NCBI GenBank assembly: GCA_041649575.1
Contig: JBAZMW010000001.1
Location: forward strand, 180,001-212,000
Reading direction: 5' to 3'
Source: Patescibacteria group bacterium
Lineage (GTDB): Bacteria > Patescibacteriota > Patescibacteriia > 2-01-FULL-39-33
Length of the DNA: 32,000 bases
Within the stretch, counting starts at the first letter, position 1; every line of letters starts with the position of its first letter. Position numbers and translations under genes: made by a program. The notes under the pieces are model-generated. The model was not told where the DNA came from and did no database searches. It worked only from the letters and a program-made list of their open reading frames with translations. Positions 2,518 to 27,053 of the stretch are shown piece after piece.

Positions 2518-3525
2518 ATGGTTATAAAAATAAAATTAATAATAATTTTGGTTTTAATCGCGGCGCTAATCGGCGGTTTTTATCTGGCGAGTTTGATTTT
2601 GTCGCCGGCCAGCCGTGAGAGTAAGGTGACTTATTTTTCCATTGAAAGCGGCGAGACGGTGGAACAAATTGCCCAGGATTTAAAAGAGCAAAAATTAATA
2701 AAAAGCGAGCTGGCTTTCAAAGCCTATGTACGCTTTGTGGGCGCGGGTAAAAAATTTGCGGCTGGCCAGCATCAGCTTGGGACCAATATGAGCACAAGAG
2801 AAATAGTCGGAGCTTTAACCAGCAGCGACAATATAAGTAATGAGAAAAAAATTATTATTTTAGAGGGCTGGAGAGCCGAAGATATTGCTAGCTATTTGGC
2901 CCGGGCCAACCTGGTTGATAAAAAGGAGTTTCTCAAAGCCTTACGGCTCGCCCTTTGGCGCGATAAGTATGATTTTTTGAAAGAGGTGCCCGCTAATAAT
3001 TTGGAAGGATTTCTGTTTCCTGATACTTATCGTGTTTTTGCCGATGCCACCAGCAGCGAGATAATAAAAAAAATGTTGGATAATTTTAATCAGAAACTGA
3101 CGGAAAAAATGAGGGCGGACATTAAGCGGCAAAATGGGGATGTTTTCAGTGTGATAATACTGGCTTCAATTATTGAGCGCGAGGGCTTGTCCGATAATGA
3201 CAAAAAGATGATTGCCGATGTATTTATAAAAAGACTAGAGAAAGGAATAGGGTTGCAATCGGACGCCACTATAAATTATATTACGGGCAAAGGAGATCTG
3301 CGGCCAAGTTTGGCGGATTTGCAAATCGATTCACCATATAATACTTATAAATATCGTGGTCTGCCACCGGGCCCAATTTCCAATCCAGGACTGGTCTCGA
3401 TAATGGCGACAATTTATCCGCAGCAAAATGATTATTATTACTTCTTGACCGACAAGAATGGCAAAGCCATCTTTGCCAAGACCTACGAGGAGCATCAGGC
3501 AAACATCAGAAAATATTTAGAATAA
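2518..3525 (+). CDS. mltG: endolytic murein transglycosylase MltG (YceG-like)
   Basis: 335 aa. N-terminal TM helix and YceG-family motifs (LASIIEREG, QSDATINY, YNTYKYRGLPPGPISNPG). Confidence 0.9.
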   Translation: MVIKIKLIIILVLIAALIGGFYLASLILSPASRESKVTYFSIESGETVEQIAQDLKEQKLIKSELAFKAYVRFVGAGKKFAAGQHQLGTNMSTREIVGALTSSDNISNEKKIIILEGWRAEDIASYLARANLVDKKEFLKALRLALWRDKYDFLKEVPANNLEGFLFPDTYRVFADATSSEIIKKMLDNFNQKLTEKMRADIKRQNGDVFSVIILASIIEREGLSDNDKKMIADVFIKRLEKGIGLQSDATINYITGKGDLRPSLADLQIDSPYNTYKYRGLPPGPISNPGLVSIMATIYPQQNDYYYFLTDKNGKAIFAKTYEEHQANIRKYLE

Positions 3526-4142: not shown

Positions 4143-4149
4143 GTTATTA

Positions 4150-4290
4150 ACAATCAAATTTTCCACAGACAATGGGCGCCCAAAAGGCTTAATTTACCGC
4201 CAAAGCGGTAGACCTATCGAGGAAATAAGGCTAGAGAGCCATTTTTCGAGTCTGTGGAAAACCACGGATTTTTATTTTATAATCATAATT
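4150..4290 (+). promoter_or_regulatory. ribosomal protein L10 leader-like structured 5' UTR
   Basis: About 140-nt untranslated leader directly upstream of rplJ. A long-range stem CCACAGAC (4163-4170) / GTCTGTGG (4250-4257) encloses a G+C-richer core. Position and architecture fit autoregulatory L10 leaders. No covariance model was run. Confidence 0.5.
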
Positions 4291-5327: not shown

Positions 5328-7733
5328 TTAGAAATTAATGTCGATTTGGTAAATTTTATTATCTGCCAGCAGGTAGATTTTTTTATCTTTTTCGGCCACC
5401 GACATGGCTTTTATTTCAGAAAAGTTTTTGGAAATGAATTGGGTCTTCAGGTTGCCTTTTTTGTCTACGACAACGATTCTTTTATTGGTTCGATTTAGCA
5501 GGTAAAGATAGTTAGAATCGGCTTCGGTTTGGATTTGGGCGATATCACTGAAGGCTGGGTCGAGCTTGATACTGAAAGATTCTTTTATTTTGCCGGCAGC
5601 CAAATAATTTATTTCCCCATTGTTTTTGGCGGTAAAAACACCGCCGTCGATAGCCAAGGCGGTGGCCTCCTTAACGCTGGTACCGTCTTTAATCCAGGGA
5701 CTACCGGAGTTGTAGACGTCATTACTGGGGTAGTGTTTGAAAATTTGATTTTTGGCGGTTTTGAGCGTATAGAGCTTGTCGCCATAAACAGCAAAATCTC
5801 TAATAGCAGTGTCGGCGGTGAGAACTTTCTCGGTGGTACCGCCGGAAAAATTGTGGCGGAAAAATTCCCGGTCGCCATTTAAAATTAAAACGCTATTATT
5901 TAAGGCGACGATCTTGGCCACTTGAGTTAAGGGGTTGTTGAGCTGGATAGGGATGGTTTGCGATTTATCCAAATCTATTTTATAGAGTTTTTGATTCTGG
6001 TTGTCGAAGGTAAACAGCAGACCGCCACTCTTTGCTAAACCGACCGTCTGGGAATCAGGGTTCTGATTTTTTAGATCGGCGACTACTTTAGGATTTTCCA
6101 AGTAAGAGACTTTTTGCAAAAGCTGATTCAGATCGGAGACTTTTTTGCCTAAATCGTCGCGGGTTTTTTTGTATTTGCGGGTCAAGGGAATTTTTCCCAA
6201 CAGCTCGCTGGCCTGGCTCAGGGAATTCTTGGCTCCCGCTTCGTCATTGAAAATATTTTGCGCTTCGGCGGAGTTGATGCTCTCCTCGATTTGTTTGGTC
6301 AGCTCATCAATATTTACTTGGGAGTTGGCCGTTGCCTCCCGTCCTTGCCAGACCAGACTTTGGCAAAACAAAAAAACCAAAACAAAGAGAGCGATTATTA
6401 GTATTTGCTTGGGTCGGCGAAGGTTGATAAATTTGGCGATTTGCCGGTTTAGCCAGTCGCTAATAGCCAAGAGCGGCCTGGGTCTTTTTTGAAAAGTTAT
6501 TATTTTTTTGTAATTATCCAGGTTGATCTGATCGGCGATTCTTTTTATTACCGCGGCCGGCCGGATAATCTTTGGCTCTCTTGTTTCGGCCAACTCGTTT
6601 GAGGCCAACGATTCATCGGCCATTCTTTTTTTAGCAACCTCGATTCTTGGCGGCTCGGCGGCGCTGGACAAGGCCTGCTCCGGAGCGGTTTCGTCAGCGA
6701 AAGAAAAATCTTCTGGAGTCGGCTTGACCTGGGGCCGGCGGGCAACAATTTTTTGTTTGAAACCAGAGAAAACGGCAGAAACTGCCAGGCCAATTTTTGC
6801 CAAACCAATTTTTAGATAACCAAATAATTTTTTTGTCGCTTTACCCAGAGCGGAAAAAATTATAATCAGCGCCTTCTTCCAATTAGGCAACAGGGAAGGG
6901 GTAAGATACTTTTCGGTTTTTTCCTGGGTGTCGAGTAGCCGGTTGATGGAGTGTTGGGGGTGGGCATTGGGTCCACTAAGAGCTCTGTCTGCTACCAGTC
7001 GTTGGCTTGTTTCTTTGGTGGCGGCTTCTTCCTCGGGGCCTGGCGATTGGATAATAACGGCATAAAAATTACCCTTGGCTCCTTGCATTTTCAGCACTTT
7101 TTCTATTTCACTGATAGTGGCCATGGAAGTGTTTTCAGCGGCAATCTCCATTAAGTTGCTTTGCGACAAATATTCTAGAATAGCGTTGTTACAAATCAGC
7201 AGGTCGTCTTTGGAAGTAATAGAGCCGCTGATAATATTGGAGAACATCTTTTCCGGATTGTGCTTGGATTTTTTTTCTCCCGCTTGGCTAAAAATGTCAA
7301 TGATTAAATGTTCGTAGCGTTTTTTGTAATGGAAGAGAAAGGCGTTGTTTTTGCCGATCTGGCTAAGATAGATTTTGTTTTTGTGGATCAGGCCGATTAA
7401 GGAATTAATGCCGCCCAGATCGATTTCGGCAATGGATTCCTGGATCATCCTGTAAAGCCGGCGGTTGGCTCGTTGCAGGCATTCCTCGAATCTTTTTTCC
7501 AGGCCGTATTCTATCTCGAAAGGCGGCAAATAATATTCTGTCTGTAAATCAGAAATAATTTCGGAAAATTTTTCCGTCACCTCGTCGGGTAGGCCGGAAA
7601 GTTCTATAATACCGAAAATCACGCCTAGTTTGTTTTTAAGCTCTTTATCGGTATCGGCGATGAAAGCGTCGCCCAGCACGTCCGGATCGGTCTCCCAGGC
7701 CAGCCGGCCAATTTTTATTGGAAAGTTAGTCAT
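5328..7733 (-). CDS. large membrane protein: N-terminal PPM/SpoIIE-like region, central TM segments, C-terminal beta-repeat (propeller-like) region
   Basis: 801 aa, ATG at 7733. Degenerate PP2C-like pattern (GVIFGIIE..., LIGLIHKNKIYLSQIGKNNAFLF). Hydrophobic stretches ALIIIFSALG... and ILIIALFVLVFLFCQSLVW. The C-terminal ~300 aa are short beta-strand repeats. The domain calls are inference only. Confidence 0.65.
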   Translation of the reverse strand: MTNFPIKIGRLAWETDPDVLGDAFIADTDKELKNKLGVIFGIIELSGLPDEVTEKFSEIISDLQTEYYLPPFEIEYGLEKRFEECLQRANRRLYRMIQESIAEIDLGGINSLIGLIHKNKIYLSQIGKNNAFLFHYKKRYEHLIIDIFSQAGEKKSKHNPEKMFSNIISGSITSKDDLLICNNAILEYLSQSNLMEIAAENTSMATISEIEKVLKMQGAKGNFYAVIIQSPGPEEEAATKETSQRLVADRALSGPNAHPQHSINRLLDTQEKTEKYLTPSLLPNWKKALIIIFSALGKATKKLFGYLKIGLAKIGLAVSAVFSGFKQKIVARRPQVKPTPEDFSFADETAPEQALSSAAEPPRIEVAKKRMADESLASNELAETREPKIIRPAAVIKRIADQINLDNYKKIITFQKRPRPLLAISDWLNRQIAKFINLRRPKQILIIALFVLVFLFCQSLVWQGREATANSQVNIDELTKQIEESINSAEAQNIFNDEAGAKNSLSQASELLGKIPLTRKYKKTRDDLGKKVSDLNQLLQKVSYLENPKVVADLKNQNPDSQTVGLAKSGGLLFTFDNQNQKLYKIDLDKSQTIPIQLNNPLTQVAKIVALNNSVLILNGDREFFRHNFSGGTTEKVLTADTAIRDFAVYGDKLYTLKTAKNQIFKHYPSNDVYNSGSPWIKDGTSVKEATALAIDGGVFTAKNNGEINYLAAGKIKESFSIKLDPAFSDIAQIQTEADSNYLYLLNRTNKRIVVVDKKGNLKTQFISKNFSEIKAMSVAEKDKKIYLLADNKIYQIDINF

Positions 7734-15547: not shown

Positions 15548-16975
15548 ATGCCAAAAATTTATAACACCTTAACTCGCAAAAAAGAAGAATTTGAACCACT
15601 TAAAGACAAAGTGGTTACTTTTTATCAATGCGGTCCGACGGTTTATTGGACACAGCATATCGGCAATATGCGAGCCATGGTTTTGGCGGATTTGATTAGG
15701 CGTTCGCTGGAATATTTGGGTTATAAAGTGAAGTTTGCCAGAAATTATACCGATGTCGGCCACTTGACCAGCGATGAAGACGAAGGCGAGGATAAAATGG
15801 CCAAGGCCGCTAGTAGGGAAAAATTAACGCCGGAAGAAATCGCGGATAAATATATTGGAATTTTTGAACAGGACGTGAAGGCCCTGAATTGCGAGGAGCC
15901 AACTTATGAGCCACAAGCCACCAAGTATATAAAAGAGATGCAAAAAATGGTGCAAACCTTGATTGACAGGGGCTATGCTTATGCCACTGATTTGGCGATT
16001 TATTTTGATGTTAATTATTATATTGAAAAAGGCGGGGATTATACTGGTCTGTCCGGCCAGGATTTAGAAAAAAATATTACTAATGCCGGCAAGGGCGAAG
16101 TAAGTGACAAGCAAAAAAAGAAGCCGCAGGATTTTGCAATCTGGTTTTTTAAAGTCGGTGAACACCAAAATGCTTTGCAGACTTGGGACAGCGAGTTCAA
16201 ATTGCCTGACGGGCAAAGCATAAAAAAAGAAGGTTTTCCGGGCTGGCATTTGGAATGTTCGGCGATGAACAAGGCGCTATTTGGCGATACGATTGATATT
16301 CACATGGGCGGCATTGAACATGTTCCGGTGCATCACACCAATGAGATTGCCCAGAGCGAGGCGGCCAACGGCAAGAGGTTTGTAAATTATTGGCTGCATA
16401 ATGAGCATTTGACGATTGACGGTGGAAAGATGTCTAAATCTGAAGGCACAGCCTATTCTTTGGCAGATATTAGAGCCAAGGGACTTGACTCGCTGGTTTT
16501 GAGATACTTCTTTTTGCAGGCGCATTATCGCAGCAAACAAAATTTTACTTGGAAGGCATTGGAGTCGGCCAGTGTGGCTTTGAATAATTTAAAGAATGTC
16601 ATTGCGAGGAGCAAAGCGACGAAGCAATCCCGTGGCAATATAAGCGAAGAGTTTAAACAAAAATTTACTGCCGTTTTGGGTGATGATTTCAATATTCCGC
16701 AGGCCTTATCTATTGTTTGGGAAATATTAAAATCGAATTTGCATGATGAGGACAAGGTGGCGACTATTTTGGATTTTGATAAAGTTTTGGGCTTAGGACT
16801 TGATAAAATTAAGGCAGAAGAGATTCCGCAGGCGGTAATTGATTTGGCCGAGGAGAGACTGAAAGTCAGGCAGGACAAGGATTTTAAAAAATCTGATGAG
16901 TTGAGAGAGAAGATGAAAGAGACGGGTTGGGAGATAGAGGATGAGAAGGAAGGATATAAATTAAAGAAGTTATAA
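15548..16975 (+). CDS. cysS: cysteine--tRNA ligase
   Basis: 475 aa. HIGN (HIGH) and KMSKS motifs, GWHLECSAM zinc/cysteine-binding region. Confidence 0.93.
   Translation: MPKIYNTLTRKKEEFEPLKDKVVTFYQCGPTVYWTQHIGNMRAMVLADLIRRSLEYLGYKVKFARNYTDVGHLTSDEDEGEDKMAKAASREKLTPEEIADKYIGIFEQDVKALNCEEPTYEPQATKYIKEMQKMVQTLIDRGYAYATDLAIYFDVNYYIEKGGDYTGLSGQDLEKNITNAGKGEVSDKQKKKPQDFAIWFFKVGEHQNALQTWDSEFKLPDGQSIKKEGFPGWHLECSAMNKALFGDTIDIHMGGIEHVPVHHTNEIAQSEAANGKRFVNYWLHNEHLTIDGGKMSKSEGTAYSLADIRAKGLDSLVLRYFFLQAHYRSKQNFTWKALESASVALNNLKNVIARSKATKQSRGNISEEFKQKFTAVLGDDFNIPQALSIVWEILKSNLHDEDKVATILDFDKVLGLGLDKIKAEEIPQAVIDLAEERLKVRQDKDFKKSDELREKMKETGWEIEDEKEGYKLKKL
16597..16634. repeat. short palindromic element inserted in-frame in cysS (same family as 20135-20194)
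   Basis: TGTCATTGCGAG-GAGCAAAGCGACGAA-GCAATCCCGTG. The 12-nt and 11-nt termini are identical to those of the reverse complement of the dus element. Translated as VIARSKATKQSRG. Confidence 0.8.
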
Positions 16976-16983
16976 ATAAAATT

Positions 16984-17031
16984 TTTAGACAAATTTAATA
17001 CCGGAAAGTCGCTGGCGCAACCTTCCAGTAT
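16984..17031 (-). repeat. 48-nt hairpin module R1, 3' of the 122-aa ORF
   Basis: TTTAGACAAATTTAATACCGGAAAGTCGCTGGCGCAACCTTCCAGTAT. 43/48 identical to R2. As minus-strand RNA it forms a 12-bp stem (12/12 paired including 3 G-U) with a GCCA loop, followed by a U-rich tail. Confidence 0.85.
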
Positions 17032-17058
17032 AGTGTTTACCGTGCATTATAATCCAGC

Positions 17059-17427
17059 TCACTCTACTTGAGCATTGATTTCTGCTGTAATGCCGGAGTA
17101 CAACTTGTGGCGTTCCGGCCCCACGATAAATGAGAGAGCGACAAACCCCAGTACAGTTTTATTATGTTTGTATCGAATGTTCCGGCAAAGCCTTTTCATG
17201 ATGCCATGTAAGTACACTGGGTGAGAGCGAATCAAGGCACGGCGAGTGCGTGGGTCCTGCCATTCTTTCAACACCTCCCATGCTTTTTGTTCGTCGTATT
17301 TTTGACTTTCTTGTAATGCCTGGCGTAATTCGTCCGCATAGTCGCGGCGAAAGTTGTCGATCTCTGCGATCGACAAGACTATTGGCACCCCATCATCCAT
17401 TTCCCCGTTTCCACTTTCCGTTCCCAT
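17059..17427 (-). CDS. hypothetical protein (122 aa), island cassette 2
   Basis: ATG 17427-17425 preceded by AGGAGGG (17434-17440, minus) at 6-nt spacing. No motif recognised. Confidence 0.65.
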   Translation of the reverse strand: MGTESGNGEMDDGVPIVLSIAEIDNFRRDYADELRQALQESQKYDEQKAWEVLKEWQDPRTRRALIRSHPVYLHGIMKRLCRNIRYKHNKTVLGFVALSFIVGPERHKLYSGITAEINAQVE

Positions 17428-17494
17428 GACGATCCCTCCTGTTGTAGGTACTGTTTTTAGTCTATCAGATGGTTTTAAAATAGTAAAATTTATA

Positions 17495-17542
17495 TTTAGA
17501 CAAATTTAATACCGGAGGGTCGCTTGCGCAACCTCCCGGTAT
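17495..17542 (-). repeat. 48-nt hairpin module R2, 3' of the 475-aa ORF
   Basis: TTTAGACAAATTTAATACCGGAGGGTCGCTTGCGCAACCTCCCGGTAT. As minus-strand RNA it forms a 12-bp stem (11/12 paired) with a GCAA (GNRA) tetraloop and a U-rich tail. Confidence 0.85.
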
Positions 17543-17568
17543 GTTGATGTACGATCGCCTGACGGCGA

Positions 17569-18996
17569 TTAGTTGAGAGCGACTGCCTCCTGCCTGCCCT
17601 CGGTGCTCAGGACCACATGGTCCTCCTCGAGCCTTAGCACGGCGATGGCGGCGCTGCCCGCGCTCTCATAGGCGTGGTTCTCGTAGATCAGCCGCGGCTC
17701 CTGGCCCGGCACCATGACATAGAGCTCATAGCGTAGTTGCGGGTCGGCGATGCGGTGATCGATCTGCTCCTCGGCCACGAAGACCGCCAGGCCCAGTCGC
17801 GCGCTTATGATCCTGTGCCGTACCGACGGCGTGCGGTAGGACACTTGGCCGGGAGTCCCCATCGGCATCTGTATGACTACGCCGTACTTCTGATCCCCGT
17901 AGTCTTGGTACATCTTTGGCTTCAGGCGCCAAGATGCCATCTTTTGCGCCAGGATCTGGGCGATCGCCGCGTCCACCTCGCCCTCAAAGGCGGCCTGCTC
18001 GGTCTCGTTGAGCTTGGGCGGACTCGGAGTCGCTTCAGTCGGCTCGAAGACAAACTCGGCGATGCGGTTGCCGTACTCCTCGTTGACGAGTTCGACGGTG
18101 ATTTTCACCTGGCCGCCCCTTTCGTCAATTTGGATTTGCCCCAGGTCGTTGATGCACAAATCGTGCCGGTCGGCGCTACTGCTGTAGCGGTTGCGCCACT
18201 GCCATTCTTGCATCTGGTCTCGGCCGTGGTGGTAGATCACCACTTGATCGAAGTAGCCGATGCCGCCACTGCCACCCCACTCGCTTCGGGCTACCAGAAA
18301 CACGGCCGTGTCGGGATCGAGCACCCTGACCTTCCCGATACTGCACCGCTCCATCTTCATCAACTCCTCAATGAACAACCGGAGCCGTGCCGACACTTCT
18401 TGCCCGCCGAGTACCTCGGCCAATGCCTCCTCATGACTCAACCGCGAGTCATCCTCCAGCAATGCTTTGACGCTGGCGGCGGCTTCGGCCAGCTCTTCCC
18501 GCTTCTGCTGGATTTGGCTGGCAAACTCTTCGCCACCGAGAAGAGCCAGCGCTTGGTGTGCGTCGGAGTAGGATTGCCGCCCGATCTCGTAAGTTTCCCG
18601 CGGGAAGTTGTCGGGGGGGAGCTCTTGTACCAAACTCCTGATGCCCAACTCATCGGTCAGGGCCAGGAACTTTTCCGTGAGCTTTCTTTCACAGCAACCA
18701 CAACCATTCATGGTCGGGTCGATTGCACTGAAGGCCTCGGCGATCGCCAGCCGGACCAGGGGATCGGGCTGGGCATTGATGGCCTTGACGATCCGCCCCC
18801 GTTCCTCGGCCGGCAATTCGCGGAGGCGTTGCACATACTTCCCGCCGCGCTGGCCATCGGCCATGGTCACAGGGATGCCGGTGACCTGCTGGGCAACTTG
18901 TAGGCAGACAGACAATTCCAACTGCCGCAGTTGTCGGCCAATCTCTTCCTCCACTTTCCGCGCTTCTTTCAGCGCTCTTTCTCTTTCCTTGTTCAT
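17569..18996 (-). CDS. hypothetical protein (475 aa), island cassette 1
   Basis: I place the start at the internal ATG 18996-18994 (MNKERERALKEARK...), because GGAGGAG (19003-19009, minus) sits 6 nt upstream and the upstream ORF stops at 19019. The track's longer 509-aa form would overlap that gene. Charged coiled-coil-like N-terminus, a CGCCERK cluster and a beta-rich C-terminal half. No family recognised. Confidence 0.75.
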   Translation of the reverse strand: MNKERERALKEARKVEEEIGRQLRQLELSVCLQVAQQVTGIPVTMADGQRGGKYVQRLRELPAEERGRIVKAINAQPDPLVRLAIAEAFSAIDPTMNGCGCCERKLTEKFLALTDELGIRSLVQELPPDNFPRETYEIGRQSYSDAHQALALLGGEEFASQIQQKREELAEAAASVKALLEDDSRLSHEEALAEVLGGQEVSARLRLFIEELMKMERCSIGKVRVLDPDTAVFLVARSEWGGSGGIGYFDQVVIYHHGRDQMQEWQWRNRYSSSADRHDLCINDLGQIQIDERGGQVKITVELVNEEYGNRIAEFVFEPTEATPSPPKLNETEQAAFEGEVDAAIAQILAQKMASWRLKPKMYQDYGDQKYGVVIQMPMGTPGQVSYRTPSVRHRIISARLGLAVFVAEEQIDHRIADPQLRYELYVMVPGQEPRLIYENHAYESAGSAAIAVLRLEEDHVVLSTEGRQEAVALN

Positions 18997-19018: not shown

Positions 19019-19315
19019 CTAGTGCGCGAACGCGTTGAGAAACTTTGCCAGCTCCCTCGGCTCTTTCTTGGAATGCCGAAGGAATCTGACGCACGCACCC
19101 ACTAACTCTGCTCCGAAATTCTCTTCCCGGCAGGCGATAGCGTACCACCTGGCTGCCAGCGCCTTTTTGCGTTTGCCGGTCCTGGCTAGGACCAGATTAT
19201 ACGCCTTGGAAGGACTGGTAGCAGACTCGGTGAGGTTGAGCAGTTCGGGTACGGCCCAAACCGCCTTGGCGCGTGCCAATAACTCGATCAGACGCTTGAC
19301 GTCTTTTGGTGTCAT
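19019..19315 (-). CDS. hypothetical small protein (98 aa), first gene of the island operon
   Basis: Start moved to ATG 19315-19313 (MTPKDVKRLIELL...), with AAGGAG (19322-19327, minus) 6 nt upstream. Predicted helical and basic. No family recognised. Confidence 0.65.
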   Translation of the reverse strand: MTPKDVKRLIELLARAKAVWAVPELLNLTESATSPSKAYNLVLARTGKRKKALAARWYAIACREENFGAELVGACVRFLRHSKKEPRELAKFLNAFAH

Positions 19316-19371
19316 GGCTTGCTCCTTTCCTCTGTAAGGTGCTATCAAGCTGATTGCCAGCTTAACTAATA

Positions 19372-19400
19372 ATTATATCATATTATAACATAATTGTCAA
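19372..19400 (-). promoter_or_regulatory. consensus sigma70 promoter driving the island operon
   Basis: On the minus strand: TTGACA (19400-19395), exactly 17 nt, TATAAT (19377-19372). This matches the consensus at 12 of 12 positions. Confidence 0.65.
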
Positions 19401-19483
19401 TGGTATTTTGTTATTTTATTTAAATTTAGCCAAAAATAATAAGTATTTTTGCCAAAAGTAGCAATTTGAATTAAAATATAGTT

Positions 19484-20563
19484 ATGAATTTTTGGAAAAA
19501 AATAAAAAAGCCCTGCCTATCCGGCAGGCAGGCGATTTTGGCTCTAGCCCCAATGGCTGGGGTTTCTGATTCGGCTTTTCGACAGGTCTGCAGAGAGTAT
19601 GGCGCCGATGTAGTCTATACCGAAATGGTATCGGCCGACGGCCTTTTTTATGATTCCAAAAAAACTTTGGAATTTTTAAAATTCAATAAAAAAGAACATC
19701 CGGTGGTAATTCAGCTGTTTGGCAAACAGTCTGAAAGATTCACTAAGGCCGCGCAAATTTGCGAGCAAGCCGGCTTTGACGGTATTGATATTAATTTTGG
19801 TTGTCCGGCCAAAAAAGTTGCTGGCCATGGCGGCGGAGTGACGCTGATGCGCGATTTGCCAAAGTGTCGAGAAATCATTGAGGCGGTTTTGGCTGGCACC
19901 AAGTTGCCGGTATCGGTGAAGTTGAGATCTAGTATTAATGTCAGGGGTTTGCCATGGCAAACCCCTGCATGCGGCAACCTGGTGACAGCTTTGGATTTTA
20001 TAAAATTTATGAAAGATTTGCCGCTCTCGGCAGTGATGATTCATGGCCGGCCATACGAAAACCCTTTCAATGCCGAAATAGATTATGAGATGATTAAGAA
20101 ATGCGTTGAATTTATAAAAAATAATTATTATTTAATGACACGGGATTGCCACCTGTCTCGCCGAGCCAAGGCGGACGCTCCGCTCGCAATGACAGCGCCA
20201 ATAGTTTTGGGTAATGGCGGTATTAAGACACCAGAAGATGCAAAAAGAATGTTGGAACAAACCGGCGCCGATGGTGTTGGGCTGGCTCGCGGGCTTTATG
20301 GCCGGCCGTGGCTGTTTCGGCAAATTAAAGACTATTTAAAGAAAGGAAAATACAGTAATCTAAAACTAGAAGAGATAAAAAAAATTATTTTAGAGCATGC
20401 TAAATTGGCTTTTGAAAACAAGGATAAACACGGCATAGTGGAATTAAGGAAGCATTTGGCTTGGTATATTACTGGCCAGCCTGGCGCCAGAGAGTTAAGG
20501 GCTAAGTTGGTACGGGTGGAAGATGTAAAAGAAATAAAAGCGATTTTAAAGTATTTAAAATAA
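19484..20563 (+). CDS. dus: tRNA-dihydrouridine synthase carrying three in-frame palindromic insertions
   Basis: 359 aa. LAPMAGVSDSAFR, INFGCPAKKV, VSVKLR and HGR motifs, plus a C-terminal helical domain. About 37 extra residues come from the insertions at 19512-19528, 19942-19967 and 20135-20194. Confidence 0.88.
   Translation: MNFWKKIKKPCLSGRQAILALAPMAGVSDSAFRQVCREYGADVVYTEMVSADGLFYDSKKTLEFLKFNKKEHPVVIQLFGKQSERFTKAAQICEQAGFDGIDINFGCPAKKVAGHGGGVTLMRDLPKCREIIEAVLAGTKLPVSVKLRSSINVRGLPWQTPACGNLVTALDFIKFMKDLPLSAVMIHGRPYENPFNAEIDYEMIKKCVEFIKNNYYLMTRDCHLSRRAKADAPLAMTAPIVLGNGGIKTPEDAKRMLEQTGADGVGLARGLYGRPWLFRQIKDYLKKGKYSNLKLEEIKKIILEHAKLAFENKDKHGIVELRKHLAWYITGQPGARELRAKLVRVEDVKEIKAILKYLK
19512..19528. 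repeat. small G+C-rich hairpin insertion near the dus N-terminus
   Basis: CCTGCC-TATCC-GGCAGG. Encodes part of PCLSGRQA, which interrupts the usual short N-terminus before LAPMAG. Confidence 0.65.
19942..19967. repeat. perfect 26-nt palindrome inside dus
   Basis: CAGGGGTTTGCCATGGCAAACCCCTG equals its own reverse complement. Translated in-frame as (V)RGLPWQTPA. Confidence 0.9.
20135..20194. repeat. 60-nt nested palindromic element inside dus (long form of the cysS element)
   Basis: ATGACACGGGATTGC...GCAATGACA. Its reverse complement starts TGTCATTGCGAG and ends GCAATCCCGTG, as in cysS 16597-16634. The core 20151-20175 is identical to rplL 4866-4890. Confidence 0.85.
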
Positions 20564-20580
20564 TTTATTTTATTAATCTA

Positions 20581-20609
20581 AAAATACCGGCCGTTAAGAC
20601 CGGTATTTT
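20581..20609. terminator. bidirectional terminator between dus and corA
   Basis: AAAATACCGG - CCGTTAAGA - CCGGTATTTT. 10-bp stem flanked by A and T runs. Confidence 0.75.
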
Positions 20610-21655: not shown

Positions 21656-22183
21656 ATGGTTGATTCGCAAAAAATGAAAAAAGTGGAGCAAGAACCCTTG
21701 GGTACGGCCGATTTCAAGCCGGAGGCTTTCAGGCTGCCCCAAAAAGAAAAAGCTCCTTTGCCGGTGCCAGAGAAACCGCAACTGGAGTCCGGGGACAATC
21801 TGGAATCCTCCAGGCTGTCCAACCAGTCGGAGATGGTGCAGGCGGGGGAATTGATTCAGCGCCATGCTCTGCCGCCAACCGCCAGCCTTTACGAAGAAGA
21901 CTACCGGCGCATCGAGAAGGTGCTGGAGGAGAATTTGAGTGATTTTTATTTTCGTCTCTCGCCCTTGGAACAACAGAAGTTCAAGCAAAAAGGCGAGGAG
22001 ACAACGGTGGCAATTTTAAGGATTATTTCCAAGCCTAGATTCAAAATAAGAAGAATAGTGGAGCTGATAAAAAATTGGCTGAAGCTGTTGCCGGGAATCA
22101 ACCGTTTTTTTCTGGAGCAAACAGCCAAGATTAAAGCCGATAAAATCATAGTGGAAGTCACCAGAAAAAGACCATATTTTTGA
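21656..22183 (+). CDS. hypothetical protein (175 aa) translationally coupled to the T4CP-like ATPase
   Basis: First ATG downstream of the putative promoter (MVDSQKMKKVEQ...; ATG 21674 is an alternative). Pro/Glu-rich, probably disordered N-half and helical C-half. The stop TGA (22181-22183) lies 2 nt before the next ATG. Confidence 0.55.
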   Translation: MVDSQKMKKVEQEPLGTADFKPEAFRLPQKEKAPLPVPEKPQLESGDNLESSRLSNQSEMVQAGELIQRHALPPTASLYEEDYRRIEKVLEENLSDFYFRLSPLEQQKFKQKGEETTVAILRIISKPRFKIRRIVELIKNWLKLLPGINRFFLEQTAKIKADKIIVEVTRKRPYF

Positions 22184-22185
22184 TT

Positions 22186-24747
22186 ATGGATCTGACTCTT
22201 AATCAAACAACCGCGGTATTGCCGGAGCTGGTAAACCAAATTGCTTTTTGGCTGGTTTTTGGCTTGGCCCTAGCGCTGGCGGTGGTTTTAATTTTGTTGA
22301 CTTTGAGAAAGATTTTGCGTTCTTATAAAATTTATGCGGCGGTTTTTGAAAATAAAATTTTTCGGCTGACGCTGCCCAAAAGAACAATCGAAAAAGAAGA
22401 AGAACGCAAAACTGTCAAAGAAATGCTCTCCGGCGTGGAAAATCTCTATGCCAATTTGGGAGGACTAAGGGCGTCGCGCGGTTTCAAGACCTGGCTGTTC
22501 GGCCGCTATGATCATTGGGCGCTGGAGATCGTGGTGGGCGAGGACCAGCTGATCACTTTTTATCTGGCGGTGCCCAAATATTTGGAAGATTATTTAAAAC
22601 AGCAGTTTTTGTCGCAGTATCCGTATTGTCAAATTGAAGAAGTTGAAGATTACAATATTTTCAAGCCCCAAGGCTATGTGGCGGTTGGCCACTTAAAGAC
22701 GATAAAAAACAAAATGTTTCCCATTCTGACCTATAAACAGATGGAGATCGATCCTTTGGTGGCGGTTTTGAGCTCGCTGGCCAAGCTGCCACCGGGGCAG
22801 ACGGCCGCTATCCAGCTGGTGATGCGTTCGGCCAGAGGCGAATGGCGCAACCAGGGAATCAAAGTCGCTTCCCAAATGCAGCAGGGCAAAAATTTAAAAC
22901 AAGCCCTGGGCGCGGTCAGTTCCAAAGGAGTTTCCGGCGCTCTAGGCAAGCCGGCAGACTGGTTTTATGCCGCCGGCACCGGCAAAAACAAGTCGCAACA
23001 ACTTAACAAGCAACCGGAGCTATATCGCTTGTCGCCGATGGAAGAGCAAGTGGTCAAATCTCTGGAAGAAAAGGCTTCCAAGGCCGGGTTGGACGTCAAT
23101 ATCAGAATCGTGGCCTTTGCTCCGCTGGAAAATCAGGCCAAAGAGATTTTGCGGCGGATTTGCAACTCTTTCGCCCAGTATTCCAGCTACGAATATGCCA
23201 ATGGCTTTAAGGCCGTAATCAAGGGTACGGGCAGAAAATTGATCGGCGATTTCATTTACCGTCATTTTGACGAAAGCATCAACATGATTTTAAATACCGA
23301 GGAACTGACTTCTTTGTGGCACTTGCCGCTACCCAATACCGAAGTGCCCAATATTCTTTGGCTCCAGGCCAGAAAGCTGCCGCCGCCGGTCAATATGCCG
23401 CCAGAGGGAATAATTTTGGGAGAAAATGTTTACCGCGGCCAGCAGACAATCGTTAGAATGAAAGACGCGGATCGCCGGCGCCATATGTATATTATTGGTA
23501 TGACCGGCACCGGCAAATCGACAACCATGGCCACCATGGCCATTCAGGATATCAGAGCCGGCAAGGGCGTCTGTGTCATTGATCCGCACGGCAGCCTGAT
23601 GGAAGAAATTATTCCCCATATTCCCGAAGAAAGGTTTGAAGACGTGATTATTTTTGATCCCGCCGACGTCGAGCGGCCGCTGGGGCTTAATATGCTGGAG
23701 GCCAAGAGCTCCTACGAAATGGACACGGCGGCTCAAGAAATGATCACTATTTTTTATAAATTATTGCCGGATCCGGCCATGGCTGGCCCGATGTTTGAGC
23801 ATTATATGAGAAACGCGCTTTTGGCGTTGATGGCCGATCAGGATGATCCTGGCACCTTGGTGGAACTGGCCAGAATTTTTACCGACGAGCCGTTCCGCAA
23901 AAAGAAATTGGAGCATGTCAAGGATATTTTAGTCAAGGATTTTTGGGAAAGAGAATACACGGCCTCGCAAAAGGGATCGACCGGCGCCGACATGCTTTCT
24001 TATGTCATTTCCAAAACCGGCCGTTTTGTGGAAAACGAGCTGATGAGAAATATCATTGGTCAGTCGAAATCAGGCATCAACTTTCGCGAGGCGATGGACC
24101 GGCAAAAAATACTGCTGATGAATTTATCCAAAGGAAAAATCGGCGACACCAATAGTAATCTATTGGGGCTGATCGCCGTTTCCAAACTGCAAATGGCGGC
24201 TTTAGCCAGAGCCGACATGCCTGAGAGCCAGCGTAAAGATTTTTATCTGTATATCGATGAGTTTCAGAATTTCATTACCGACAGCATTTCTGTAATTTTA
24301 TCGGAGGCCAGAAAATACAAACTCAATTTGGTGATGGCTCACCAGTACATCGCCCAATTAGTGCAGAACAACGATACGCGGGTTAAGGACGCGGTTTTTG
24401 GCAATGTGGGTACGATAGTCTGCTACCGCATCGGCGTGGACGACTCCGAGGTGATGGCCAAACAACTGGCTCCGCAAGTCAATGAGTTTGACGTGATGAA
24501 TATTGAAAAATACCATGCCTATGTCAGGCTGTTGATAGATAACACCGCCTCGGAAACTTTCAATATGCTGGCTTATCCGCCAGACAAAGTGGCGGCCAGC
24601 TCGGCGGATCCGGAAATCGTCAAGCCGCTGAAAGAGCTGTCCCGGCTGAAATACGGCCGTGACCGCAACTTGGTGATAAGAGAAATAATAGAGCGGTCGA
24701 AAATCGGGCAGCTGGGCGTCAAGCCGCCTAGCCCGCTTGGCAAATAA
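22186..24747 (+). CDS. membrane-anchored TraD/VirD4-like (type IV coupling protein / DUF87-type) P-loop ATPase
   Basis: About 853 aa from ATG 22186. N-terminal TM (IAFWLVFGLALALAVVLILLTL), Walker A GMTGTGKST (23497-23520), Walker B-like YLYIDEFQNF (around 24256-24267), then ARKYKLNLVMAHQY, typical of the TraG/TraD C-terminal region. Confidence 0.8.
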   Translation: MDLTLNQTTAVLPELVNQIAFWLVFGLALALAVVLILLTLRKILRSYKIYAAVFENKIFRLTLPKRTIEKEEERKTVKEMLSGVENLYANLGGLRASRGFKTWLFGRYDHWALEIVVGEDQLITFYLAVPKYLEDYLKQQFLSQYPYCQIEEVEDYNIFKPQGYVAVGHLKTIKNKMFPILTYKQMEIDPLVAVLSSLAKLPPGQTAAIQLVMRSARGEWRNQGIKVASQMQQGKNLKQALGAVSSKGVSGALGKPADWFYAAGTGKNKSQQLNKQPELYRLSPMEEQVVKSLEEKASKAGLDVNIRIVAFAPLENQAKEILRRICNSFAQYSSYEYANGFKAVIKGTGRKLIGDFIYRHFDESINMILNTEELTSLWHLPLPNTEVPNILWLQARKLPPPVNMPPEGIILGENVYRGQQTIVRMKDADRRRHMYIIGMTGTGKSTTMATMAIQDIRAGKGVCVIDPHGSLMEEIIPHIPEERFEDVIIFDPADVERPLGLNMLEAKSSYEMDTAAQEMITIFYKLLPDPAMAGPMFEHYMRNALLALMADQDDPGTLVELARIFTDEPFRKKKLEHVKDILVKDFWEREYTASQKGSTGADMLSYVISKTGRFVENELMRNIIGQSKSGINFREAMDRQKILLMNLSKGKIGDTNSNLLGLIAVSKLQMAALARADMPESQRKDFYLYIDEFQNFITDSISVILSEARKYKLNLVMAHQYIAQLVQNNDTRVKDAVFGNVGTIVCYRIGVDDSEVMAKQLAPQVNEFDVMNIEKYHAYVRLLIDNTASETFNMLAYPPDKVAASSADPEIVKPLKELSRLKYGRDRNLVIREIIERSKIGQLGVKPPSPLGK

Positions 24748-26979: not shown

Positions 26980-27053
26980 TGCGGGATCGTCTAATGGTAG
27001 GACACGCCCCTCTGGAGGGCGGTATCATGGTTCGAGTCCATGTCCCGCAGCCA
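26980..27053 (+). tRNA. tRNA-Gln (anticodon CUG), CCA encoded
   Basis: Manual cloverleaf: acceptor TGCGGGA/TCCCGCA (U1-A72), D arm GTCT-AATGGTA-GGAC, anticodon arm CGCCC-CTCTGGA-GGGCG, variable loop GTAT, T arm CATGG-TTCGAGT-CCATG, discriminator G, then CCA. Confidence 0.9.

Follow-up and report, generated by a model that had tools for sequence, protein, structure and literature searches.

Small RNAs derived from 3′ UTRs usually consist of a conserved single strand, a terminator hairpin and a U-rich end. HUH nucleases act at nic sites that comprise a hairpin with a 4-nt loop, which may vary, and a single-stranded recognition sequence on its 3′ side (PMC4176350). For bidirectional terminators between convergent genes, the expected layout is an A/C-rich 5′ flank and an A/U-rich 3′ flank (10.1101/2022.10.23.513370), as is the case for the element that we describe here. 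This element, a hairpin with a conserved tail, occurs twice in a 32-kb stretch of DNA from a Patescibacteria genome, which was analysed as a whole and is referred to below as the window. We propose, with a probability of roughly 0.6, that the module is a lineage-specific, probably bidirectional, putative intrinsic terminator that delimits an antisense expression slot on its 3′ side. The original prediction, which regarded it as the 3′ RNA element of inserted cassettes, overlooked the simplest reading, a terminator between the last gene of the slot and cysS.

The slot is the interval between its two anchors, cysS (15548–16975, plus strand) and dus (19484–20563, plus strand); its genes lie on the minus strand, so that cysS is convergent with this island. 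Read along the minus strand, the order is promoter, 98-aa ORF, 475-aa ORF, R2, 122-aa ORF, R1 and then the cysS stop codon. The promoter (19372–19400, minus strand) is divergent from dus and reads TTGACA-17-TATAAT with an extended TG, matching the sigma-70 consensus at 12 of 12 positions. It precedes the 98-aa gene (19019–19315) and the 475-aa gene (17569–18996), which are genes 1 and 2 of an operon that we call type B. There follow, again on the minus strand, the R2 hairpin (17509–17542), the R2 invariant tail (17495–17511), the 122-aa gene (17059–17427) with its own AGGAGG ribosome-binding site, the R1 hairpin (16998–17031) and the R1 invariant tail (16984–17000), which ends 8 nt from the cysS stop codon. 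The R2 hairpin forms the 3′ end of the 98-aa and 475-aa operon, and the R1 hairpin forms that of the 122-aa transcription unit. Upstream of the 122-aa gene, reading from the sequence gave a weak promoter-like TTTACT-17-TAGACT (17487–17459), which falls below the threshold of the promoter scan. The minus strand also has two smaller hairpins. One of them, AUCGCC-GUCA-GGCGAU, is stop-proximal in the 3′ UTR of the 475-aa gene (17545–17568), and the L001 orthologue has a differing one, GUCGCU-AGUCG-AGCGAC, at the same place (7381–7400). The 5′ UTR of the 98-aa gene carries the small stem-loop AAGCUG-GCAAU-CAGCUU (19347–19363), whose counterpart in L001 (about 5627–5645), AAGCCGA-UGG-UCGGCUU, has matching changes on both arms.

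Several features outside the slot were recorded in passing. Three in-frame insertions in dus (19510–19532, 19942–19967 and about 20135–20200) are missing from the closest relatives. The first two contain G+C-rich palindromes, the one at 19942–19967 being a perfect 26-bp palindrome, and the dus of L032 has an unrelated, longer insertion at the site of the second; these insertions are reminiscent of palindromic elements whose entry into genes keeps the reading frame. Positions 22180–24747, which lie about 1.6 kb past dus, encode an 855-aa homologue of TrwB/TraG-like coupling proteins. It has syntenic counterparts in L001 and L030, in which Pfam reports DUF8128 as well. The window showed no relaxase and no other gene for conjugation. 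Rfam matches were ordinary: a ribosomal protein L10 leader and one tRNA (4145–4284 and 26980–27050).

R1 (16984–17031) and R2 (17495–17542) are direct repeats, and their predicted identity at 43 of 48 positions was borne out, the match extending to 51 nt at 88%. A 21-mer that they share, TTTAGACAAATTTAATACCGG, has exactly two occurrences in the window even when three mismatches are tolerated (0.00 occurrences expected). The original prediction also placed the start of each module correctly, at about 25 nt past a stop codon: R1 begins 27 nt after the 122-aa ORF and R2 begins 26 nt after the 475-aa ORF. It was likewise right that all five differences between R1 and R2 lie inside the hairpin, where each arm has two and the loop has one. 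The minus-strand RNA has a 15-bp stem, of which the 12 bp described originally are the core. Within this core we recovered the same pairing counts, 12 of 12 for R1 (three G-U) and 11 of 12 for R2 (two G-U and one A·C mismatch), and the same plus-strand A·C mismatches, three in R1 and two in R2. The minus-strand folds reach −23.2 kcal/mol for R1 (z −6.2) and −23.7 kcal/mol for R2 (z −5.2), and 0 of 200 shuffled sequences did as well; the corresponding plus-strand values are −12.1 kcal/mol (z −1.8) and −19.3 kcal/mol (z −2.9). DNA folding parameters ranked the strands in the same way, with the minus strand better than the plus strand.

Two details of the predicted hairpin required revision. The loops had been described as GNRA; this is true of GCAA in R2 but not of GCCA in R1, and the loops in other genomes are CAGCA and GAAGA. 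Because these four loops differ, no loop motif is conserved. The strand asymmetry of pairing had been read as evidence of selection on the island transcripts. The four differences between the R1 and R2 stems are all one-sided; pairing is kept through G-U wobble in three cases and broken in one. With so few events (about 4:1, P of about 0.2 by our estimate), the asymmetry between R1 and R2 is suggestive and does not reach significance.

Four further copies were found in related Patescibacteria (L001, L014, L029 and L031), which brings the total to six copies in five genomes. The L001 locus has the order dus, promoter, 98-aa gene, 459-aa gene and cysS, with one copy of the module and no 122-aa gene. 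A third population (L014, L020 and L028) has the same promoter and module around genes for a 162-aa membrane protein and a 195-aa lipoprotein-like protein. A covariance model was built on the four sequences known before the L031 and L029 copies; it scores R1 at 78.9 bits and R2 at 79.7 bits, and it retrieved these last two. The L031 copy (E 6e-11) follows the orthologous membrane-plus-lipoprotein operon, away from cysS, and the L029 copy (E 1e-7) lies between a partial gene and a 55-aa gene, with a canonical terminator between the end of the latter and cysS. We dropped the assignment of the L029 partial gene as a type A lipoprotein (defined below), since only its low-complexity Pro/Ala tail matches. 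After the L029 module (3209–3279, minus strand) there is a good promoter-like TTGACT-16-TAAAGT, the 55-aa membrane-protein gene and that gene's own canonical terminator, a layout that parallels R2, the 122-aa gene and R1 in the window, with the second terminator differing.

The position of the module is consistent among copies. All six lie 20–40 nt 3′ of an island-sense stop codon, inside the cysS–dus interval. Four are in a convergent gap, 8–28 nt from a plus-sense stop codon, which belongs to cysS in three cases and to a 257-aa gene in L031; the R2 and L029 copies lie between co-directional genes. The minus-strand hairpins of R1, R2 and the relatives fold at −23 to −30 kcal/mol (z −5 to −8). 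We could also confirm that the module closes unrelated island gene sets, namely the 98-aa and 475-aa operon, the 122-aa gene and the operon for the membrane protein and the lipoprotein. The module is not a terminator of a generic kind spread over the genome, an outcome that the original prediction had named as its own refutation: the exact tail 19-mer has one match in the 508,581 bp of the L001 contig. Scanning a genome collection with this 19-mer gave chance matches only, whereas a metagenome collection yielded the L001 contig and the third population. Across the genome and metagenome scans there were 6 and 12 matches outside the related loci, all without a hairpin, which are due to chance; the source contig is in neither collection, and the once-only count refers to the 508-kb sister contig. 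Viral contigs and phage records gave no match, and no Rfam family covered the modules at the gathering threshold or at E up to 10. A REP/BIME repeat was rejected, since there are two copies in the window against tens to hundreds per genome and the 19-mer occurs once in 508,581 bp, and copy number also rules out a DNA-uptake sequence.

Alignment of the six copies supports the stem. It is 94.4% paired, with double-sided changes at the adjacent pairs 8–27, 9–26 and 10–25, and the lower stem occurs as the alleles GGAAGG/CCUUCC, GGAAAG/CUUUCC, GGAGGG/CCCUCC and GGGAGG/CCUCCC. Only 13–18 of 500 shuffles reached the observed values, and slid controls were 34–51% paired. Because the alignment was fitted to the covariance model, these pairing counts lean towards structure; the compensated arm alleles are plain in the raw sequences without the model. 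The three double-sided compensatory pairs supply the covariation on more copies by which the stem was to be judged, and we conclude from the aligned sequences that the hairpin is a real, selected structure. Four copies have U·G at pair 13–22; of the other two, one has C-G and the other has U-A. The U·G would correspond to a long-lived A·C mismatch on the plus strand, and this favours folding of the island-sense strand, although the independent events are few. The R1 and R2 stems are both imperfect and resemble mixtures of the arm alleles of other copies.

The end of the 3′ arm together with the tail (CCGGUAUUAAAUUUGUCUAA) is identical in five of the six copies, in backbone DNA that is only 55–85% identical, and the invariant stretch after the stem is 17–21 nt long. 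The tail of R1, UAUUAAAUUUGUCUAAA, is identical to that of R2 and has a 28-nt exact match to L014; the L029 copy has 4–5 changes in its tail. When the window is compared with L001 or with L014, tail and 3′ arm form the third-longest exact match in either case, and they are the sole non-coding match among the longest matches listed, on a par with codons of the cysS and dus catalytic cores. Conservation of a non-coding 17–21-mer to the level of catalytic-core codons suggests a partner that binds it specifically. The tail holds no more than four U in its first 8 nt after the stem and about 8 in 14 overall. The degenerate, hairpin-less copy of the tail that had been reported near the promoter exists (TATTATTTTTGGCTAAA, 19425–19441, minus strand, upstream of the slot promoter, 14 of 17 identical), but its significance is doubtful: such a match is at chance level (0.28 expected per window), and the covariance model gives it an E of about 1.3. 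In L014 the equivalent block holds the palindrome CTAAATTTAG, and we rejected it as a true copy of the tail; because the block matches the tail weakly in both orientations, we treat it as low-complexity similarity. Just past the dus stop codon, TATTTTATTAATCTAAAAAT (20566–20585, plus strand) matches the island-sense tail at 16 of 20 positions, inverted relative to the R1 tail; in this A/T-rich region the match may be due to chance.

Comparison of related loci indicates what the module delimits. The cysS–dus interval is a conserved antisense expression slot, with a near-consensus promoter beside dus and gene sets that are unrelated from genome to genome. The promoter, TTGACA-17-TGnTAnAAT, is conserved in all loci with a readable intergenic region (the window, L001, L014, L031, L032 and L033). 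Judged by CysS and Dus identities, the window and L014 are sisters (81% and 78%), as are L001 and L031 (73% and 85%), and the rest are at about 65–76%. The type B operon, encoding the 98-aa and 475-aa proteins, is present in the window and L001 (identities 72% and 59%), and a type A operon, encoding the membrane protein and the lipoprotein, is present in L014 and L031 (identities 51% and 56%); both operon types are present within each sister pair. Small hydrophobic proteins are encoded in the slots of L032, L033 and L034. L030 and L036 have no slot and nothing between cysS and dus, since the cysS stop codon overlaps the dus start codon. Homology between the window and L014 stops just past the promoter and resumes only near the R1 module, and the edges of the module coincide with the breakpoints of the change in gene content.

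The proteins encoded in the slot are poorly represented elsewhere. The 475-aa gene has a G+C content of about 60%, against about 42–45% in its surroundings. Its product (P0001) has nine homologues, found among 5.8 billion clusters, and so belongs to a tiny family of 10 clusters; the homologue in L001 (GCA_041650015.1) has 459 aa and 57–59% identity. In Pfam, PHROGs and PADLOC the three island proteins drew no credible match, only weak hits far below threshold, and a Pfam search with the slot proteins of the other loci gave no credible match either. A structure model of the 475-aa protein (pLDDT 82.5) had no fold match in a Foldseek search of the PDB (TM of about 0.1). More distant members of its family (L002 and L005) sit directly 3′ of a gene for a receiver domain (Response_reg), a neighbour that hints at a signalling role. 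A word-based search with the 122-aa protein returned only the protein itself; its single remote homologue is P0132 (37% identity, E 2e-9), which is encoded on a contig that is rich in G+C and lacks the module. We take the 122-aa ORF to be a real gene.

The original prediction had two cassettes inserted in tandem at one A/T-rich target, each bringing its own 3′ RNA element. The hairpin differences do not agree with this: R1 and R2 differ from each other at 5 positions, from L014 at 3 and 2 positions, respectively, and from L001 at 10 and 9. Both are closest to the single L014 copy, whereas the L001 copy, located after the orthologue of the 475-aa gene, is distant from them, so duplication of a resident element is more parsimonious than import. 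The idea of a common A/T-rich target is not supported either, since the two empty sites (L030 and L036), with their overlapping cysS and dus, lack the tail. As for mobility, no integrase, transposase, recombinase or HUH gene was found in the 32-kb window, and the hallmarks of integron attC sites are missing. We infer that the resident module may have been duplicated in this genome when the 122-aa gene was added, probably by recombination through the ~50-nt module itself. The R2 5′ flank is homologous to L001 (score 13, P < 0.0005) and the R1 3′ flank is the end of cysS; similarity of the R1 5′ flank to L014 and of the R2 3′ flank to L001 was rejected by a shuffle test (P 0.14 and 0.89). The internal flanks of the 122-aa unit are unique and match nothing else, which is compatible with insertion by recombination through the module and does not reveal the enzyme.

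A canonical hairpin and U-run terminator abuts the cysS stop codon in L029, L032, L033 and L034, and the R1, L014 and L001 modules occupy the same cysS-adjacent place as the terminators of these four relatives, two of which share the ACCGG...CCGGU base of the module. The distant homologues of the 475-aa gene (L002 and L005) are likewise followed by canonical terminators. A stable G+C-rich stem-loop just past the stop codon, as expected of an intrinsic terminator, was found in six of six copies. An intrinsic-terminator scan that looks for at least five U in 8 nt called neither R1 nor R2, as their U-tracts fall short of this. The island-sense 5′ flanks vary in sequence and are always A/C-rich, which gives the convergent gene a U/G-rich tract, and the 3′ flank is A/U-rich.

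Under this reading, the promoter beside dus would fire towards the 3′ end of the essential cysS gene, and a consensus promoter so aimed would provide a selective reason for a strong insulator. The G+C-rich 13–15-bp hairpin and the A/U-rich stretch would stop and stabilise island transcripts, and they would shield cysS from antisense read-through. Since the A-rich island-sense 5′ flank is a U-rich tract on the plus strand, the hairpin could end cysS transcripts too. A terminator role does not account for everything. Conservation of the tail is unlike that of ordinary terminators, half of the conserved stretch would lie beyond the normal termination point, and a terminator role alone leaves the coincidence of breakpoints with module edges unaccounted for.

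The tail might itself be the functional part, a sequence-specific RNA or DNA recognition element for which the hairpin is a scaffold; for example, it could be the seed of a 3′-UTR sRNA of the plus-strand gene, could determine the processing or stability of island transcripts that read through, or could bind a protein that acts as a roadblock, and a terminator role on top would be compatible with any such function. The invariant single-stranded 17–21 nt, the compensated stem changes and the variable outer flanks are as this explanation would have them. On the plus strand, moreover, four of the six copies come right after a plus-sense stop codon with conserved sequence, hairpin and U/G-rich flank in that order, an arrangement that matches the one usual for 3′-UTR-derived sRNAs, and plus-strand hairpins are still stable in L014 (−23.7 kcal/mol) and L001 (−32 kcal/mol). 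A plus-strand sRNA is, however, at odds with the G-U wobbles, which favour island-sense folding and leave an A·C on the plus strand at pair 13–22, and the R2 and L029 copies have no upstream plus-sense gene. No complement that could serve as a target of the tail was found in the window, no Rfam family matched, and the L029 copy tolerates 4–5 tail changes. We regard a tail-centred function as unlikely. It is scarcely credible that the repeat arose by a recent, neutral duplication in place or by an error of assembly and does nothing by itself. There are only two copies in the window, and the source is a metagenome-assembled genome; however, the module is kept in four other genomes whose CysS is only 70–81% identical, and it shows compensatory changes. 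Because R1 and R2 differ at 5 positions and their flanks differ, they are not a collapsed or duplicated assembly repeat, and the cross-genome conservation of the sequence already contradicts the neutral explanation.

The module might alternatively be a recombination or capture site, its folded single strand being recognised by a recombinase or HUH nuclease encoded elsewhere. Cassettes would then be inserted or swapped at the module, and the 122-aa gene would be a cassette that integrated at the resident site and duplicated it. Direct repeats of about 50 nt do bracket this single gene, whose internal flanks match nothing else; sister genomes have different operons between the same promoter and the module (B in the window and A in L014, B in L001 and A in L031), with the homology of the window and L014 breaking just past the promoter until near R1; the invariant single-stranded tail beside a co-varying hairpin resembles HUH nic sites (PMC4176350); and both window stems are imperfect, like mixtures of arm alleles found elsewhere. 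Nevertheless, we judge a capture site distinctly unlikely. The 32-kb window encodes no integrase, transposase or HUH protein, and the exact tail 19-mer gives no sign of a cassette pool, with one occurrence in the 508-kb sister contig and none elsewhere among the relevant public genomes and metagenomes. The tail is absent from empty sites, R1 and R2 resemble the copy of the sister genome rather than separate donors, and two perfect parent hairpins would not give the window stems as reciprocal products. The features of attC are lacking too: neither the six aligned copies nor their flanks conserve RYYYAAC ... GTTRRRY core boxes; an enclosing outer helix is present in only two of the six (R1 and L001); and no extrahelical base is conserved, the L014 and L001 stems having no unpaired bases and the L031 stem having a small internal loop at a position that no other copy shares. 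There is no adjacent intI/attI or attC cluster, the gene divergent from the promoter being dus, with at most two copies of the module per locus. A narrower claim would be that Patescibacteria have a gene-capture system that is undescribed and distinct from integrons, with hairpin and tail as its attachment or nic site; this is, in our view, improbable. If true, a single-strand-specific enzyme encoded elsewhere would insert or swap promoter-dependent gene units at one highly expressed slot, which would account for the invariance of the tail, the strand bias of the wobbles, the ~50-nt duplication and the alternative operons of the sisters.

Three further candidates were rejected. An IS200/IS605 element or miniature derivative does not fit the solo hairpins in relatives, and no transposase was found nearby. 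For a dif/Xer site of the IMEX type, the window has no lasting change of GC-skew sign and no ATAA-N6-TTAT core; cumulative GC skew rises steadily across it, with a slight dip over the minus-strand island. An inverted match between 17576–17598 and 19523–19545 rests on a 10-mer and is at chance level.

We conclude that a putative, probably bidirectional terminator at the end of an antisense slot is the reading to be preferred. If it is true, the locus offers a natural example of a conserved expression slot, with a consensus promoter and its own terminator-insulator, in the reduced genomes of Patescibacteria, in which unrelated accessory operons are exchanged right beside an essential gene. The slot would show where these genomes keep flexible genes, and the module would help to annotate where transcription units end in a phylum for which transcript data are almost lacking.

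Set beside known systems, the module resembles bidirectional intrinsic terminators in its G+C-rich hairpin, short convergent gap, A-rich and U-rich flanks and position 20–40 nt after the stop codon. It differs from them in its 3′ tract, which has no U-run and is invariant across a backbone of 55–85% identity, and in that the R2 and L029 copies lie between co-directional genes. With integron attC sites and CALIN arrays it shares a single promoter, units of the same orientation that each carry a related imperfect palindrome, a strand-biased fold and gene content that varies at a fixed locus, but the R″/R′ core boxes, conserved extrahelical base, paired outer box and integrase of those systems are absent. 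Like HUH sites (the R388 TrwC nic site, IS200/IS605 ends and REP/RAYT), it has a hairpin, whose loop has 4 nt, and after it, on one of the strands, conserved single-stranded sequence; in contrast to them, no HUH gene was found nearby. REP elements occur in far more copies. Both arms of the module co-vary, whereas the nic-adjacent arm of the TrwC site is fixed, and relatives keep a solo hairpin at the same site, which precise excision of an IS200/IS605 element would not leave. Finally, the locus resembles replacement-type flexible genomic islands, in that the operons which sister genomes have between a shared promoter and a shared 3′ element are unrelated, but its conserved arms are very short (a promoter region of about 150 nt and a module of about 50 nt) and are the expression signals themselves.
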